A DNA stretch of 30,291 bases from Acidimicrobiales bacterium (GTDB taxonomy: Bacteria; Actinomycetota; Acidimicrobiia; Acidimicrobiales; AC-14): positions 1 to 30,291 of the forward strand of contig JBPCJV010000256.1 of the NCBI GenBank assembly GCA_051004925.1. Reading direction: 5' to 3'. Shown one piece after another: positions 23,322 through 30,291 of the stretch. The position numbers were made by a program, and so were the translations under genes. The number at the start of each line of letters is the position of its first letter. Position 1 is the first letter of the stretch. Below the pieces are notes generated by a model that was not told the origin of the DNA, searched no databases, and worked only from the letters and a program-made list of their open reading frames with translations.

Positions 23322-26186
23322 CTACTTCAGCAACTCCTGGAGCAGTTGTTCGCACTCGGGGGTCGGGCTGAGGTCGAGGTCGCCCAGGCGGGCCTGCAGC
23401 CGGCGGAAGGTGGCGTCGACCTCGTCGGGCCGGAACTGCTTGGCGTGGAGGCGCATGATCCGCCGGTAGAGCTGCTCGGCCACCGGGTCGACCTCGACGG
23501 CGTGGGAGAGGGCGTCGAGGGCGCCGCGCACGTCGGCGGCCACCAGTCGGGTGGCGGCCAGCGACACGAGTACGTCGACGGCCCGCCGCCGCAGGTCCTC
23601 ACGGGGCACGTCGGCCCACGCCCAGTCGACGCCGGCCAGCAGTTCGCCTCCGTACAGGTCGGCGGCGCTCTCCAGGGCCGCGGCCCACTCGGGGTCGTTG
23701 GTGCCGGCGCCGGGCTGGGGCAGCGCGGCCTGGAACCGCCAGAGGTCGACGTCGAAGACCGGTTCGATCCGGTAGCTGTCGCCGTCGCGCTCGACGATCT
23801 TGAGGGCCTTGGTGCCCGTGACGTTGCGGAGGAGGCTGCGCAGGTTTCCGAGCGCGGTCCAGAACCACTCCGAGCCGCGCCCCGGATCGGCCTCGGGCCA
23901 AAGGGCCTCGGTGGCCACGTCGAGGGTGGTGCCTTCGGGGTGGAGCAGGTAGAAGGCCAGCAGCTCCCGGGCCTTGGCCCGCAGGCCGCTGCGGATCTCC
24001 TCGCCGCCCACGTCGATGCGGTAGGGACCGAGCACCCGCACCTTGATCGGCGCCGGGGCGGCGCCGATCAGCACGGGGAACGGCTCGTCGGCCGGGTCGA
24101 CGACAGGCGTCACGTCGTCGTCGGTGCGGGCGGCGGCGAGCAGGTCGAGCAGCTCTGAGGCGGGACCGAGCCCCAGGCTGAACATCCGGCTCCCGGCGAG
24201 GTCGGGGGCCACGTCGGGGGGGGCGACGGTGCGGACACCACCCCCGGGCTGGAGGGTGGCCACAGTGGATCCGGGAAGGGCCTCGCCGACGGTCAGCACG
24301 GCCACGCCGAGGGGCCGGCCCCGTCGAGCCAGGTCGGCTAGCCGGTCAGCCTGTTGAGGAGCCACGGCGGGTGTGGCCAGGACGACAAGGGGCGTGGCGT
24401 CGTCGGGGCCGCGGCGGCGCGCCAGCTCGTCGTCGATCAGATCGAGGGCGGCGGCCAGCCCGTCCGTCCGCTCGAGGCCGGGGAAGGGGACGCCGGGCGG
24501 CAGGAGCTCGCCGGCGACGACGGCCCGACCGGATGCCGGCTCGTTCACGGCGAGGAAGGTGGTGACCAGGGCCCGGGCCGCGTCATGGGCATCGGGGCCC
24601 ACCAGGGCCAGGGGGCTGGTCGCGGCCAGGTCGACGGCCAGCTCCTGCCCGTCGCGCTCGGCCACGACGACGAACGCGGTCGCGGGCCGGCCCCCCCGCT
24701 CGGAGGGCCGCTCGGGCCCGCTACCCCGCTCGGAGGGCCGCTCGGGCCCCGCAGGATCGGCCCCGTTGGGGTTCCAGGCCAGGCCGGGTCGGGCCAGGGC
24801 GAAGCGCTCCAGGCGTCGGCTGACCTCGCCGGCGAAGGGGTCCTGCCGGAAGAGCCCGGCGGTGGGAGCCCCGGCCCGTCGCCGGCGGCGGCGGCGCAGG
24901 CGGGCTCGGCCGAGGGCGTCGCTCACACCCATGGCCAGCGTCGGCCCCACGGCCACCCCGGGGAGCACGCAGACAAGGCCGGACTCCTGTTCGGCCCCGG
25001 CGTCGGCGGCGGCGCGGTCCTCGGTGACGGTCTCGACCGCCGCGCCTCCGGCAGGGGCCTCCGCCGGTGGGGATACGGCCTCCGCCGCGGCCTCAGATTC
25101 GGCGCCTCCCAGGTCGGCGGGTCCTCGTTGGCTCCCGCCGGCGACGTCGGAGGCGGAGCCGGTCTCGGTCCGGTCATCCGCCGCCGGTGCGGGCAGGGGC
25201 GGGTCGGGAGGCGCGTCGTCGGGAAGGGGCGCATCGCCGGCCACGCCGGCCGGGCGGGTCGGAAGCGGGTCCGGGGCGACGGGAGGGGCCGCGACCTGGG
25301 CGGCGGTGACCGGTTCAGGCGCGGGAGGCGCCGGAGTCGGGGCGGCCGGCGCCAGCCATCGTTCCGCCGCTCGACGCACGGCCTCGTCGACCACGATGGT
25401 GAACCACTCGGCGGCCTCGTCCGGGGCCTCGTGGAGCTGCGACACCGGGTCGACCGCCCCACCGTCGTCCGCCGGCGCCGGGTCGGGATCGACCGCCAGG
25501 GCCGGGGTGAGGGCTTCGGCGACCGCGCCGGGAAGGGCCTCGGTGAGGGCGGCCCCGAGCTGGGCCACGGAGGCCCGCAGCTCGGCGACGGCGGCGCGGA
25601 CGGCGTTGTCGACCGTCGTGGCCACGGCGGCCTGCACGGCTTCGGCCACCAACCCGGGCAGTTGGGTGCGGGTGTCCCGCAGGGTGGCGGACTCGTTGCG
25701 AAGCTGGGCCGAGCAGCCCTCCAGCTCGGCGAGCGACGAGTTGAGCTCCTCCTCCTGGGCACCCGTGCTGCGCAGGAGGGCCTCCTCCTGGCGGGCCAGG
25801 CGCTGAGAGAGGCTGCGCAGGTTGGCGTTCACGGCGTCGAACTCCCCGCGTAGCCAGGCCAGGACCTCGGCTGCCGGGTCGGCCACGGGAGGCGGTGCCT
25901 CGGCCCAGCCACGCCCGGCCTGCTGATGGCCGTCTCCCGGCTCTGCCGGGCCCGCCACCCCGCTCGAAGGGCCGCTCGGGCCCGCGGGCTGGGTCATCTC
26001 GGCCTCGACCTCGGCGGCGATCTCGGCCTTGATCTCGGCCTCCACCTCGGAGACGGGCGCGGGCGCCGGCTCGCCCGCGTACGGGGCATCCCGATCGCGG
26101 TCGGACATCACCGGCGCGCGCGCGGTCGACGGTGCCTGCTGAGGCCGTCGCGATGGTCGACGAACTGGCCCATGAAGCCGTGACAC
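23322..26186 (-). CDS. Large regulator with a C-terminal wHTH-BTAD (SARP-like) module
   Basis: C-terminus VRVLGP...ARELLAFYLLHPEG...EALWP...VDLWRF...LYGGELL...AEQLYRRIMRLH. N-terminus is coiled-coil-like and Pro/Ala-rich. Alternative start is ATG 26108. Confidence 0.8.
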   Translation of the reverse strand: MSRLHGPVRRPSRRPQQAPSTARAPVMSDRDRDAPYAGEPAPAPVSEVEAEIKAEIAAEVEAEMTQPAGPSGPSSGVAGPAEPGDGHQQAGRGWAEAPPPVADPAAEVLAWLRGEFDAVNANLRSLSQRLARQEEALLRSTGAQEEELNSSLAELEGCSAQLRNESATLRDTRTQLPGLVAEAVQAAVATTVDNAVRAAVAELRASVAQLGAALTEALPGAVAEALTPALAVDPDPAPADDGGAVDPVSQLHEAPDEAAEWFTIVVDEAVRRAAERWLAPAAPTPAPPAPEPVTAAQVAAPPVAPDPLPTRPAGVAGDAPLPDDAPPDPPLPAPAADDRTETGSASDVAGGSQRGPADLGGAESEAAAEAVSPPAEAPAGGAAVETVTEDRAAADAGAEQESGLVCVLPGVAVGPTLAMGVSDALGRARLRRRRRRRAGAPTAGLFRQDPFAGEVSRRLERFALARPGLAWNPNGADPAGPERPSERGSGPERPSERGGRPATAFVVVAERDGQELAVDLAATSPLALVGPDAHDAARALVTTFLAVNEPASGRAVVAGELLPPGVPFPGLERTDGLAAALDLIDDELARRRGPDDATPLVVLATPAVAPQQADRLADLARRGRPLGVAVLTVGEALPGSTVATLQPGGGVRTVAPPDVAPDLAGSRMFSLGLGPASELLDLLAAARTDDDVTPVVDPADEPFPVLIGAAPAPIKVRVLGPYRIDVGGEEIRSGLRAKARELLAFYLLHPEGTTLDVATEALWPEADPGRGSEWFWTALGNLRSLLRNVTGTKALKIVERDGDSYRIEPVFDVDLWRFQAALPQPGAGTNDPEWAAALESAADLYGGELLAGVDWAWADVPREDLRRRAVDVLVSLAATRLVAADVRGALDALSHAVEVDPVAEQLYRRIMRLHAKQFRPDEVDATFRRLQARLGDLDLSPTPECEQLLQELLK
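24694..24749 (-). repeat. 30-bp tandem duplication holding two copies of the 26-bp intragenic motif
   Basis: ccccgctcggagggccgctcgggccc at 24694 and 24724; encodes GPERPSERG twice. Confidence 0.85.
25958..25985 (-). repeat. Dispersed intragenic repeat, N-terminal copy in the BTAD gene
   Basis: ccccgctcgaagggccgctcgggcccgc; one mismatch to the 24694 copy, but read in another frame (AGPSGPSSG). Confidence 0.8.
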
Positions 26187-26289
26187 CAGGCCATGAAGAG
26201 GGAGCTTACCGGCCGTGCCGGAGGCGACCCAAGGCCGGATCGCCGGTCGGCCGGAAGGCTACGTTCGTTGGGTGAGAACCACGCCGGCG

Positions 26290-27285
26290 ATGGACCGTCG
26301 CATCGACCTGGCCCACCTGCCCACGCCGCTCGAGCGGATGGACCGCCTCGGGGCCCACCTGGGCATGGCGCCCGGGCACCTCTGGGTGAAGCGCGACGAC
26401 ATGACGGGTCTGGCGGGCGGCGGCAACAAGGCCCGCAAACTCGAGTACCTGTGCGCCGACGCCCTCGACCGGGGCTGCGACACCCTCGTCACCGGCGGCG
26501 GGGCCCAGAGCAACCACGTGCGCATGACCGCAGCCGCCGCCAACCGCCTGGGGCTGGCCTGCACCATCGTCCTCAACGGCGAACGCCCCGAGCCCCCGAC
26601 CGGCAACGTGGTCCTCGACGAGCTGCTCGACCCCGAGATCGTATGGGCCGCCCGGCAGGGTGAGCTCGACTACTTCGGCATCGAGGCGGCTATCGAGAGC
26701 GCCTGCCGGCGACTGGAGGACTCGGGGCGCCGTCCCTACGCCATGCCCATCGGTGGGGCCAGCACCGTGGGCGCCCTCGGCTACGTCCGGGCCGCGGTCG
26801 AGCTCCGGGCCCAGGATCCTCGGTTCGACCTGGTGGTCGTGGCCGACGGCTCGGGCGGCACCCACGCCGGCCTGGTGGCGGGGCTCGGCGACCACCGCGC
26901 CGTGTACGGCGTCGACGTGGGAGCGCGGCCCAACCTCGACGAGACGGTGCCACCCAAGGCCGCCGAGGTCGCCGCCCTCGCCGGTCTTCCCGCCCCCGTC
27001 GGCGATCCCGGCCCGTCCGGGCTTCCGGCGGCGGTCATCGACCACGACCGCTTCGGTGCGGCCTACGGCGCCCAGACCGACGAGACCCGCCAGGCCCTGC
27101 GCCTGGCGGCGCGCTGCGAGGGCCTCATCCTCGACCCGGTGTACACGGGCAAGGCCATGGCCGGAATGGTGGCCGGCGTGTCGAGCGGCCGCGTCCCCGT
27201 CGATGCCCGGGTGGTTTTCGTGCACACCGGTGGGCTTCCCGCGCTGTTCGCGGCGGGATTTCCGGAGTGGCTCAGGCATGGGTGA
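26290..27285 (+). CDS. D-cysteine desulfhydrase / ACC deaminase family PLP enzyme
   Basis: PTPLE, WVKRDD, GGNKARKLEYL (PLP Lys), QSNHVR, GSGGTHAG, LDPVYTGKA and VHTGG. Confidence 0.9.
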   Translation: MDRRIDLAHLPTPLERMDRLGAHLGMAPGHLWVKRDDMTGLAGGGNKARKLEYLCADALDRGCDTLVTGGGAQSNHVRMTAAAANRLGLACTIVLNGERPEPPTGNVVLDELLDPEIVWAARQGELDYFGIEAAIESACRRLEDSGRRPYAMPIGGASTVGALGYVRAAVELRAQDPRFDLVVVADGSGGTHAGLVAGLGDHRAVYGVDVGARPNLDETVPPKAAEVAALAGLPAPVGDPGPSGLPAAVIDHDRFGAAYGAQTDETRQALRLAARCEGLILDPVYTGKAMAGMVAGVSSGRVPVDARVVFVHTGGLPALFAAGFPEWLRHG

Positions 27286-27334: not shown

Positions 27335-28222
27335 ATGGCCGACGAAACCGCAGTCAAGACCCGCAGTCGAATCTCGGCCTATGTGGCCCTGACGAAGCCA
27401 CGGATCATCGAGTTGTTGCTGGTGACGACGGTGCCCACGATGGTGGTCGCCGAGCGCGGGCTCCCGTCAGGCTGGTTGATCCTGGCCACGCTGGTGGGCG
27501 GCGCGCTGGCCGCCGCGGGGGCCAACACCATCAACATGTACGTCGACCGCGACATCGACAAGCTCATGAAGCGCACGAGCGGCCGGCCCCTCGTGACCGG
27601 CGCGATCTCCCCCACCGCCGCCCTGGTCTTCGCCGTCCTCCTCGAGTTGGCCGCCGTCGTGGAGCTGTGGCTGCTGGTCAACCCCCTCAGCGCCGCGCTG
27701 GCGGTGAGCGCCACGTTGTTCTACGTGTTCGTGTACACGCTTTGGCTGAAGCGCACCTCGTCGAACAACATCGTCATCGGCGGTGCCGCGGGCGCCGTGC
27801 CCGTGCTGGTCGGGTGGGCGGCGGTGACCAACTCGCTCGGTCTGGCCCCCATGGTCCTGTTCGCCATCATCTTCTACTGGACGCCCCCCCACTTCTGGGC
27901 CCTGGCCATCCGCTACCGCGAGGACTACGCGGCCGCCGCCGTGCCCATGCTCCCGGTGGTGGCGTCGTTCGCCCAGACCGCCCGCAAGATCGTCATCTAC
28001 ACCCTGATCCTCTGGGCCATCACCCTCGTGTTCTGGCCGGTGGGGAACATGGGCAACCTCTACCTGGCGGCCGCCATCCTGCTCGGCGGAGTGTTCACCT
28101 GGAAGGCCGTCCAGCTGGCCCGCAGCGGCACCACCGAGCGGGCCATGGGCCTGTTCGGGTGGTCGATCACCTACGTCACCCTGCTCTTCGGGGCGATGGC
28201 CGCCGACCAGCTCATCCAGTAG
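27335..28222 (+). CDS. ctaB: Protoheme IX farnesyltransferase (heme o synthase)
   Basis: LTKPRII, INMYVDRDIDKLMKRT..RPL, YT.WLKR, NIVIGGAAGA and WTPPHFWAL. Confidence 0.95.
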   Translation: MADETAVKTRSRISAYVALTKPRIIELLLVTTVPTMVVAERGLPSGWLILATLVGGALAAAGANTINMYVDRDIDKLMKRTSGRPLVTGAISPTAALVFAVLLELAAVVELWLLVNPLSAALAVSATLFYVFVYTLWLKRTSSNNIVIGGAAGAVPVLVGWAAVTNSLGLAPMVLFAIIFYWTPPHFWALAIRYREDYAAAAVPMLPVVASFAQTARKIVIYTLILWAITLVFWPVGNMGNLYLAAAILLGGVFTWKAVQLARSGTTERAMGLFGWSITYVTLLFGAMAADQLIQ

Positions 28223-28322: not shown

Positions 28323-30047
28323 ATGTCTGCCACCGACACCACCGAGGAGCGGGAGGTCGAGGCCCCGGCTCCCGGGGAGCCCGCGGTCTCCGACCCCTGG
28401 CCGGCGGCCACCAACCACAAGGTGGTCGGAACTCTCTTCATTGTGCTCGGCATGCTGTCCCTCGTCGCCACGGGAGTGCTGGCGCTGGTGCTACGGGCGG
28501 AGGTCAGTGGCTCCGACGTCGGCCTGATCGGCGACACCACCTACCGCCAGGTGTTCACCCTGCACGGCGTGCTCGGCGTGTTCGGGTTCCTGGGCCCCGT
28601 CTGGGTCGGTCTGGCCACCGCCCTGGTGCCCCTCCAGATCGGAACCGCCCGCCTGGCCTTTCCCCGGCTCCAGCCCATGACCCTGTGGATGGCGGTGGTG
28701 GGCATCGCCATGATCGTGACCTCGCCGTTCCTCTCCGGCGCGGAGGCGATCAGCGGGTGGTCGCTCTCCGACCCCATCCCCGAAGGCGGCGCCTTCAGCG
28801 GCGACGGTCCCGACCTGCTCATCCTGGGCCTGGCCGTGGTGGCCGTGGCCCTCGTCGTGGCCGCCGTCAACCTCATGGTCACCGTGATCAAGATGCGGGC
28901 TCCCGGGCTCACCCTGCGACGCACCCCGCTGTTCTCGTGGTCGGTGCTGGTCTCGGGGTCGGTCATGATCCTCGCCCTGCCCGTTCTCGTCGGGGCCCTG
29001 GTCATGCTGTTCGTCGACCGCCGCTACGACTGCCACATCTCCAACGGGTTCACCGGCTCGGGCGGCGGCGACCCCCTGCTCTGGCCCCGCCTGTTCTGGT
29101 TCGCGGCCTACCCGGTGCTGTGGGCCCTGCTGTTGCCGGGCCTCGGGCTGGTGTCCGAGATCGTCCCCGTCTTCGCCCGCCGGCGCATGTTCTCCCACCA
29201 ACGGGCGGCCGCCGCCCTGGGGGCCGTCGGGGTGCTGGCCTTCGCCGGGTGGGGGAGCGAGCTGCCCGACCTGTCCCGGGCCCGAGTCCTGTTCGCCATC
29301 GGCGCCCTCGCCGTTCTTGCCCCCGTGGCGTTGCTGTTCCTCAACTGGCTGGCCACCATCGGCTCGGCCCTGCGGGAGCAGACCGTGAAGGTAGCCGAGC
29401 TGCTGAGCCCCCCAATGGTGTACGCCGGGGGCTTCATGGCCGTGCTCGCCCTGGGCCTGGCCGCCGGCGCCGTCGCCGCCGTCGGCGCCGGTACCGACCT
29501 CCACCGCAACTACTGGCAGGTGGCCACCCAGCACACGCTGTTCTTCGGGGCCGCAACCCTCGCCGTGGTGGCGGCACTGGCCTACTGGTCGCCCAAGCTC
29601 TGGGGCCACCACCTGTCGGAGAAGGGCAGCCTGCCCACTGCGGCCCTCCTGGTCGGGGGCATGGTGGTCACCTTCGGTGCCATGTTCGTGCTGGGTATCC
29701 AGGACATGCCCGTGCACCAGGCCGGGTTCGACGCCGACGGCGACTTCGGCTCCGCCAACCTCGTCTCCTCGATCGGGGCCGTCGTCACCGCCGTCGGTGT
29801 GCTGGCGTTCGCCTTCGACCTGGCTGTCAACGTCATCGGCCGTCGCGGCCGACCGGCCGGCGACGACCCCTGGTCGGGCCACACGCTCGAGTGGGCGACG
29901 TCGTCGCCCCCTCCGTCGTACAACTTCGACCGTCTACCCGAGATCCGCTCCGAGGCGCCCATGCTCGACCTGCGAACGACCCCGGCCGACTCCACCATGG
30001 ATGCGTCGGGGATCCCGACGGCCACGCTGGACCGGGCGGCCCACTGA
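28323..30047 (+). CDS. Degenerate cytochrome c oxidase subunit I homologue lacking the binuclear-centre ligands
   Basis: A-type scaffold motifs are present (TNHKVVG, TLHG, AFPRL, MRAPG, GGDP.L, W.PKLWG, DPW.G.TLEW...SPPP.YNF), but HPEVY, HH and the heme a3 His are replaced. Confidence 0.88.
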   Translation: MSATDTTEEREVEAPAPGEPAVSDPWPAATNHKVVGTLFIVLGMLSLVATGVLALVLRAEVSGSDVGLIGDTTYRQVFTLHGVLGVFGFLGPVWVGLATALVPLQIGTARLAFPRLQPMTLWMAVVGIAMIVTSPFLSGAEAISGWSLSDPIPEGGAFSGDGPDLLILGLAVVAVALVVAAVNLMVTVIKMRAPGLTLRRTPLFSWSVLVSGSVMILALPVLVGALVMLFVDRRYDCHISNGFTGSGGGDPLLWPRLFWFAAYPVLWALLLPGLGLVSEIVPVFARRRMFSHQRAAAALGAVGVLAFAGWGSELPDLSRARVLFAIGALAVLAPVALLFLNWLATIGSALREQTVKVAELLSPPMVYAGGFMAVLALGLAAGAVAAVGAGTDLHRNYWQVATQHTLFFGAATLAVVAALAYWSPKLWGHHLSEKGSLPTAALLVGGMVVTFGAMFVLGIQDMPVHQAGFDADGDFGSANLVSSIGAVVTAVGVLAFAFDLAVNVIGRRGRPAGDDPWSGHTLEWATSSPPPSYNFDRLPEIRSEAPMLDLRTTPADSTMDASGIPTATLDRAAH

Positions 30048-30291
30048 TGGCCGTCACCGCTCCCGTCCGGGCCACGGCCCCGCCCGCCGCCACCCCCGGG
30101 ACCTCCCTCCCCACCCTGCCCGCGGGGGCAGGGACGCCGGCGCCCGCCGGCCGACCGCATGGGACCACGCTCCTGGGCATGAAGCTCGTCATCGCCGCCG
30201 ACGCCATGGTGCTGGTGGCCCTGCTGGTGGCCTTCTTCGTCATCAAGGGGAGCTCGCCGGTATGGCCGGCGAGGGGAGTGAAGCTCGGCAC
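30047..30291 (+). CDS. Cytochrome c oxidase subunit III-like protein, partial
   Basis: Not in the track. ATG 30047 overlaps the previous stop (TGATG). Hand translation: ...GTTLLGMKLVIAADAMVLVALLVAFFVIKGSSPVWPARGVKLG, matching the subunit III 'LGM.L.I..E.M.F..L...Y......WP' pattern. Confidence 0.7.
   Translation, partial: MAVTAPVRATAPPAATPGTSLPTLPAGAGTPAPAGRPHGTTLLGMKLVIAADAMVLVALLVAFFVIKGSSPVWPARGVKLG

Follow-up and report, generated by a model that had tools for sequence, protein, structure and literature searches.

A conserved subunit I paralogue keeping only the low-spin haem ligands of an oxidase, and its gene module in Acidimicrobiales

Positions 28323-30047 on the forward strand of a 30,291-nucleotide contig from an uncultured Acidimicrobiales bacterium (JBPCJV010000256.1, assembly GCA_051004925.1; the whole contig is called the window here) hold a gene of the haem-copper oxidase (HCO) superfamily, which we named pseudo-CtaD. 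The results showed that it encodes a full-length subunit I of 574 amino acids (aa) with the COX1 fold of 12 transmembrane (TM) helices, in which the low-spin haem site alone is kept and every active-site histidine is replaced, and that this pattern is conserved under purifying selection throughout the GTDB family of the organism. In relatives, the gene stands in a three-gene module with a subunit III-like gene and a gene for a CtaF-like membrane protein bearing a blue-copper domain, beside a caa3-type oxidase operon. With a probability of about 0.55, we regard this module as non-catalytic, with a haem and a blue-copper site; attached to the caa3 oxidase, it would work as a relay, a buffer or a scaffold. 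The source genome, of which the window is one whole contig, is a 79%-complete soil/sediment metagenome-assembled genome with 71% GC.

Ligand pattern of the pseudo-subunit I

The open reading frame (ORF) runs uninterrupted from ATG to TGA, and Pfam COX1 (PF00115) covers the protein end to end with 240 bits, in agreement with the initial annotation, which had described an intact 574-aa frame with preserved hydrophobic helices. An AlphaFold2 model built on a 62-sequence alignment (predicted local distance difference test score, pLDDT, 86.6; predicted TM-score, pTM, 0.88) was matched by Foldseek to actinobacterial CtaD and to CyoB with TM-scores of 0.85-0.89 and a root mean square deviation of ~2 Å, which together with the PF00115 match places pseudo-CtaD in the HCO superfamily at fold level. 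Compared with actinobacterial aa3 CtaD (M. smegmatis 6HWH/6ADQ, C. glutamicum 7Q21), it has the same 12-helix fold at 30-32% identity in structure alignments, and it shares the low-spin His pair, the helix-I Arg, the C-terminal DPW..TLEW..SPPP motif, and subunit III-like and IV-like partners. Unlike CtaD, it has no haem a3 His, CuB His, cross-linked Tyr, D- or K-channel residues, or PRR motif. Its scores were 375.7 for TIGR02891 (CtaD; cutoff 670.75) and 342.5 for NF050116 (actinobacterial aa3; cutoff 880), so that it falls outside the CtaD/CoxA equivalog and the aa3 family alike.

The replacements were read residue by residue from a HMMER alignment to M. smegmatis CtaD (6HWH, 6ADQ). Second alignments were made with 120 database homologues and with the canonical ctaD of the same genome (contig C158; HPEVY, WAHH, HMH and PRR), a separate gene for which the initial annotation had asked confirmation. 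The two axial ligands of the low-spin haem were retained. FTMHG of M. smegmatis is FTLHG in pseudo-CtaD, with the first ligand, H81 of helix II, encoded at 28563..28565 (+), and AHFH is ATQH, with the second ligand, H404, at the end of TQH (402-404; 29526..29534, +). Both were invariant in 120/120 homologues, which makes up the bis-His ligand set of a low-spin haem, and H81 was also found in 22/22 of a second sample. R58 (28494..28496, +) aligned to the canonical helix-I Arg (bovine R38), which is hydrogen-bonded to the formyl group of haem a.

The ligands of the binuclear centre, in contrast, were all lost. GHPEVY has become AYPVLW, and YPVLW (263-267; 29109..29123, +) removes the first CuB His, the gating Glu and the cross-linked Tyr. 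Among the 120 homologues, position 263 was Y in 112 and F in 8, the gating-Glu column held V, T, L or M, and the Tyr typical of O2-reducing HCOs was replaced by W267 in every sequence. WAHH has become WGSE (310-313; 29250..29261, +), with the loss of CuB His 2 and 3; column 312 was S in 115, T in 3 and G in 2, and column 313 was E in 103 and Q in 17, and no homologue had a His at 263, 312 or 313. The proximal His of haem a3 is T402 here, with T in 60, Q in 48, E in 7 and others including S in the remainder. No consistent alternative ligand set for a binuclear site, a possibility raised in the initial annotation, was found in the 120 homologues, the replacements varying between E/Q, S/T/G, Y/F and T/Q/E.

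The proton channels showed the same picture. The D-channel entrance Asp is R110 (28650..28652, +; R in 120/120), the K-channel Lys is L338 and HD is HR, as aligned with the genome's own ctaD and the homologues, and over the homologues the A-family pump residues read R for D, Q/H for N, V/T/L/M for E and L/V for K. MPRRY is MPVHQ, so that the arginines of PRR are gone and the His of PVH is residue 465. Every exchange listed in the initial annotation was confirmed. As judged from the alignments, neither the binuclear centre nor either channel is left, and pseudo-CtaD can therefore not reduce O2 or NO, nor can it pump protons.

Even among divergent members of the superfamily this is exceptional. 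The eNOR, bNOR, sNOR, gNOR and nNOR proteins were described as new nitric oxide reductase (NOR) families of the HCO superfamily, with a high-spin haem His and a three-His FeB site (with Glu or Asp); gNOR was presented as the first HCO family with even a single active-site His replaced, and in the current classification the active-site His are conserved in all HCO families save that one in gNOR (Murali et al. 2024, PMC11214002). Pseudo-CtaD resembles these families as a divergent HCO member without the active-site Tyr that is predicted not to reduce O2, but they keep a high-spin haem and a three-residue metal site, whereas in pseudo-CtaD all four active-site His positions are replaced.

Conservation and selection in the family

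Orthologues of pseudo-CtaD (E<=1e-120) were found in 56 of the 58 genomes of the window's family, at 43-83% identity and in 17 of 18 genera. A single match was carried by 54 of these genomes and two matches by the other 2, and inspection of the locus revealed the gene in a 57th genome (G456, 45% identity). The family tallies include four genomes flagged as unpublished (G404, G437, G438 and G440), and the sequence-level claims rest on none of these. The window has an intact frame, as do 54 of the 56 genomes, and homologues with invariant H81 and H404 reached down to 42% identity (>120 sequences). In the family, 131 positions were at least 97% conserved, 39 of them family-specific, and W398, W427 and Q460 were invariant. 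Since the whole family shares these fixed substitutions, the replacements, as aligned, are far beyond chance. In a class-wide search with P0001, close orthologues were confined to the family; the best hits elsewhere (36-40% identity) were rejected as orthologues, being canonical oxidases with all ligands present.

Selection was estimated by the Nei-Gojobori method (NG86). For pseudo-CtaD, the ratio of nonsynonymous to synonymous substitution rates (dN/dS) came to 0.23 in the closest pair and to 0.30-0.38 among members of the genus, rough values given that dS was 0.5-0.9 and probably near saturation, yet far from 1. The true COX1 next to it, compared over the same pairs of genomes, gave 0.16-0.20. 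Neither a disrupted frame nor neutral evolution was found, and the pseudogene reading was rejected on the conservation, the dN/dS well below 1 and the wide distribution in the family. These results supported that pseudo-CtaD is a repurposed gene under purifying selection, not a decaying one, as had been proposed from the window; the orthologues have likewise lost the ligands, and the dN/dS values of 0.23-0.38 fit. One 205-nt soil metatranscriptome contig (run X23) matched 28481-28685 of the window, inside pseudo-CtaD, with 98% identity; DNA carry-over is possible, and this weak hint is too little for a claim of transcription.

The three-gene module and its ligand-less relatives

Pseudo-CtaD is translationally coupled to the gene that follows, a subunit III-like gene whose ATG overlaps the TGA of pseudo-CtaD (ATGA). 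The window holds the 5' part of this gene, 81 codons at 30047..30291 (+), cut by the contig end. Over the start of P0121 (L004), a protein that matched Pfam COX3 with 68 bits, the fragment showed 67% identity. As seen in the relatives, the module consists of pseudo-CtaD, a CtaE-like (COX3-like) protein of ~220 aa and a CtaF-like 7-TM protein of ~325 aa with a C-terminal cupredoxin domain, and it has no subunit II gene of its own. In five long contigs the gene order was ctaB, pseudo-COX1, COX3-like, TM-cupredoxin, COX2-cyt c, COX1, COX3, COX4 and CtaG. At L034 a Fur/ZnuABC insert of ~5 kb splits the trio from the caa3 genes, and the trio is therefore the unit.

The third protein was present beside the pseudo-subunit in 55 of the 58 family genomes. 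It is predicted to form seven TM helices followed by a beta-sandwich, according to the model, that is, four CtaF-like helices, three further helices and the C-terminal domain. The first four helices (residues 4-127) matched the CtaF of the genome's own aa3 cluster and its relatives by hhalign (97.2% probability, E 3.6e-11, 120 columns), which established homology at the profile level. The TM part had no Pfam or NCBIfam match at E<=1, and its kinship to CtaF was seen by profile-profile comparison only. The C-terminal domain, a Pfam Cupredoxin_1 match, carries the type-1 copper ligands His and Cys-x2-His-x2-Met (H269, C311, H314 and M317), which were invariant in 11/11 aligned family members and present in 77/78 database homologues, so that this partner subunit, as seen in the relatives, has the type-1 (blue) copper ligand set in a cupredoxin fold. 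Its nearest structures were auracyanin A (2AAN) and amicyanin (1ID2). These carriers have the same ligand set and fold; unlike them, the partner is neither free nor lipid-anchored but fused to a 7-TM CtaF-like domain, and its gene is part of a module derived from an oxidase. The loop charges are compatible with a topology with the N-terminus in and the C-terminus out, in which the copper domain would lie outside. Genus g181, also of this family, has a longer third subunit (454-463 aa; L056:2745-4199(-) and L059:6765-8198(+)), which matches the cupredoxin part of P0122 twice, as two tandem blue-copper domains.

Other Acidimicrobiales (Microthrixaceae, Acidimicrobiaceae and others) carry, with the gene order unchanged, a COX1-like gene ~4.5 kb upstream of the caa3 COX1. 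All six His have been lost from these genes, including the low-spin pair (for example L011:3578-5263, L017:3610-5283 and L024:3562-5208), the exceptions being L025, which keeps one of the low-spin His, and L026, which keeps both. We found no publication on these ligand-less pseudo-subunits. In a maximum-likelihood tree of 71 sequences, all pseudo-subunits formed one clade with a Shimodaira-Hasegawa-like approximate likelihood ratio test (SH-aLRT) support of 100, which splits into the window's family (SH-aLRT 100) and the rest (SH-aLRT 100); the tree came from a quick search under LG+G4, and its long branches call for caution. By this tree, the module is shown to have arisen once in Acidimicrobiales.

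Both branches have much in common, namely the clade, the position before the caa3 operon, the subunit III-like and CtaF-like partners and the C-terminal W517/E523/W524 motif. The third gene of the ligand-less modules encodes the same TM domain with an invariant Ser-Arg (SR) motif. They differ in that the ligand-less pseudo-subunits have lost the low-spin His (except L026), R58, W146 and H465, and that their third subunit has no cupredoxin domain. R58 was invariant in family sets of 62 and 120 members and kept in 21/21 of a further sample, with Gly in the 22nd sequence (L061), whereas it was replaced in 15 of 16 ligand-less relatives and in L026. W146 and H465 (or Arg at the latter, the position of the second Arg of PRR), which like R58 belong to the surroundings of haem a in true oxidases, were kept in the window's family and lost in the sister branch. 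Thus H81, H404, R58, W146 and H465 go together with the copper domain in the window's family, and the sister lineages are without both, except for the two His of L026. Because the haem site is conserved as a set only where the partner bears blue copper, this covariation, our main argument, is suggestive of a real haem that would exchange electrons with the copper.

Upstream, ctaB, encoding haem O synthase of the UbiA family (27335..28222, +; Pfam UbiA 209 bits), directly precedes pseudo-CtaD in the window; its start is uncertain, with ATG codons at 27278, 27308 and 27335. A UbiA gene of 294-313 aa occupies the same position in relatives. Before ctaB, the five long contigs have a BTAD regulator gene on the opposite strand and a gene for a pyridoxal phosphate (PLP)-dependent enzyme. 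In the window these lie at 23322-27285, with the regulator of ~950 aa on the minus strand, syntenic with L004, L033, L034 and L035. The BTAD-domain regulator might control the cluster.

The true oxidases of these organisms showed features of their own. The caa3-type COX1 beside the module is 700-760 aa long in L004 (L004:14520-16808, P0124), L033 and L035, and after helix XII it continues with an Asp/His-rich low-complexity repeat (DADSN and DGHDG units) and a two-helix hairpin, which matches the C-terminal half of CtaF by BLAST. This tail looks like a piece of subunit IV fused to subunit I, with a possibly metal-binding linker. A third canonical COX1 type occurs in the family (G000 C128:4-300, at L003; G415:C12; G445:C2:115278-116618). 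It is ~50% identical to both the aa3 and the caa3 type, and the ORFs of ~1100-1200 aa in relatives are possibly subunit I-III fusions. The C128 fragment was considered as the neighbouring caa3 COX1 of the window's genome (G000) and rejected, since it belongs to this third type, 50% identical to both others. In Solirubrobacterales and Mycobacteriales, the COX1 genes L013:5039-7366, L014:7185-9527 and L018:7902-9656 keep all six metal ligands and the Tyr with a different channel layout, namely Ala/Gly in place of the D-channel Asp/Asn, Val for the gating Glu and Glu for the K-channel Lys.

Proposed role, alternatives and meaning

We propose that pseudo-CtaD is a non-catalytic paralogue of A-family subunit I and the first gene of what may be termed a "relic oxidase" module. 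The pseudo-subunit I would hold a bis-His low-spin haem, probably haem A because the formyl-binding Arg is retained. A type-1 copper domain would be tethered at the outer face by the 7-TM subunit IV-like protein, in place of subunit II and its CuA. Electrons would pass between blue copper and haem, as between CuA and haem a, and the complex would dock to or feed the adjacent caa3 oxidase. We infer that haem and copper occupy these sites, that a complex forms and that the copper domain faces outwards, and, for electron transfer, which way it runs and with which partner. The bolder form of this proposal, a new kind of oxidase-derived two-centre unit (haem a plus blue copper) without catalytic site that serves the caa3 oxidase as entry, buffer or wire, is offered tentatively and may well prove wrong. 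Of the roles suggested in the initial annotation, a single-haem electron wire or a structural partner fits best, because the partner is a blue-copper subunit and the module adjoins the caa3 operon. The suggested haem a chaperone working with CtaB found no specific support, since ctaB is the usual first gene of cta clusters and the sister lineages keep a ligand-less module. The module of three genes, its copper partner and the ligand-less relatives throughout the order lay beyond what the initial annotation could see.

Several points weigh against a relay between haem and copper. Haem and copper binding in the module is read from the ligands only, and the dN/dS values are rough for the reason given above. 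The covariation of haem ligands and copper domain amounts to essentially one phylogenetic contrast, not a statistical one, and L026 has the two His but no copper domain. G456, which had seemed to offer a second independent contrast by lacking haem ligands and copper domain, was rejected as such, since it carries both. Apart from the copper, no donor or acceptor for the haem was identified, and the bo3-type quinol-site residues (E. coli CyoB R71, D75 and H98) are absent from the family, with A/V, L/I and T/P aligned to them; CyoB Q101 is common to all COX1. The assembly of the window's genome lacks the rest of the module (P0122 had no match in G000) as well as the caa3 operon. A cytochrome b complex and two or three true oxidases are already encoded in the family genomes, which leaves no gap in the chain to fill. 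A role as stand-in for a missing bc complex was accordingly rejected, a cytochrome b gene being present in five of five near-complete family genomes, within ~3 kb of the aa3 ctaD in the four genomes where both share a contig. These five genomes also have a second, short match to the cytochrome b N-terminal domain besides the qcrB-like one (G445:C2:261868-262236 and equivalents in G402, G403, G415 and G401), in an ORF of ~270-285 aa in four of them and of 572 aa in G401. Finally, the basic function of the module cannot require redox chemistry, because the sister lineages keep it without the cofactor ligands.

This last point keeps alive the view of the module as a purely structural pseudo-enzyme, on which the caa3 oxidase or a supercomplex would be held or assembled independently of cofactors. 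The haem site would then be a structural or slowly decaying relic, and the copper would serve the true oxidase directly, like a tethered auracyanin. The sister Acidimicrobiales do keep the three genes beside caa3 with six His replaced and no copper domain, and the features common to both branches, the W517/E523/W524 motif and the SR motif of the third subunit, look structural. We nevertheless consider this explanation rather doubtful for the window's family, where more than 120 sequences, as distant as 42% identity, all have H81 and H404, and where R58 is invariant in 120 (one Gly exception was found separately). W146 and H465 are kept as well, and the whole set is lost together in the sister branch, whereas a mere relic would be expected to erode likewise in the window's family.

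Handling of haem A or copper, with transient haem A binding by pseudo-CtaD and hand-over to the true subunit I as a chaperone linked to CtaB, appeared improbable. It could draw on the adjacent ctaB, on the retained formyl-binding Arg58 and on a CtaG-family gene that also lies just upstream in some relatives, but ctaB heads the whole cta cluster anyway. The ligand-less sister modules cannot bind haem and are yet conserved at the same place, a 12-TM subunit with subunit III-like and IV-like partners and a copper domain exceeds what a chaperone needs, and no homology of the three module proteins to the assembly-factor family CtaG was seen.

A new catalytic or quinol-reactive site, with Y263, W267, S312, E313, T402, W398, Q403 or a site near the haem binding a substrate, a metal or a quinone (for example as a quinol:blue-copper oxidoreductase), seemed just as improbable. 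The replacements are indeed highly conserved (W267 in 120/120, Y263 in 112 and S312 in 115, with W398, W427 and Q460 invariant), and the top PDB sequence matches include quinol oxidases, aligned from residue 25. The candidate ligand positions, however, are chemically variable (E/Q, T/Q/E, Y/F), the bo3 quinol residues R71, D75 and H98 correspond to A/V, L and T here, and the newly conserved residues are mostly bulky aromatics, as if filling the emptied haem a3 pocket. A recent pseudogene or an assembly artefact, for which nothing speaks beyond the missing ligands, has a negligible chance given the intact frames (in the window and 54 of 56 genomes), the fixed substitutions, the dN/dS well below 1, the translational coupling to the next gene and the recovery of the same DNA in several independent soil and sediment metagenomes.

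Degenerate paralogous subunits are retained in other complexes, such as CydB beside CydA in cytochrome bd and ActF beside ActC in alternative complex III. As in these cases, a catalytic membrane subunit was duplicated, and the copy is still kept after the loss of its cofactor or substrate site; CydB and ActF, however, are subunits within one enzyme, whereas here a whole set of subunits I, III and IV is duplicated beside the true enzyme, with which it would associate. Full-text literature searches found no description of pseudo-CtaD or of the module, so that, as far as these searches show, the clade had not been described; the initial annotation had thought that some non-catalytic members of the superfamily might already be.

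The pseudo-CtaD family is a pseudo-enzyme branch of the haem-copper oxidase superfamily, whose oxidases rank with the most thoroughly studied enzymes, and a conserved, selected subunit I without any active-site His breaks the rule stated in the current HCO classification. In NCBI these proteins are named 'cbb3-type cytochrome c oxidase subunit I', which is functionally wrong. Genome-based oxidase tallies for soil Acidimicrobiia are for this reason too high, as are estimates of aerobic capacity in this group. The graded series from true oxidase to haem-only subunit with blue copper to fully ligand-less protein is a natural experiment on the origin of pseudo-enzymes, in which the ligand-less sisters would document the stepwise conversion of an enzyme into a pure scaffold. 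If the proposed role is true, the module of the window's family would be a natural half-oxidase of the 'CuA to haem a only' kind, in which the first electron-transfer step is isolated from catalysis.

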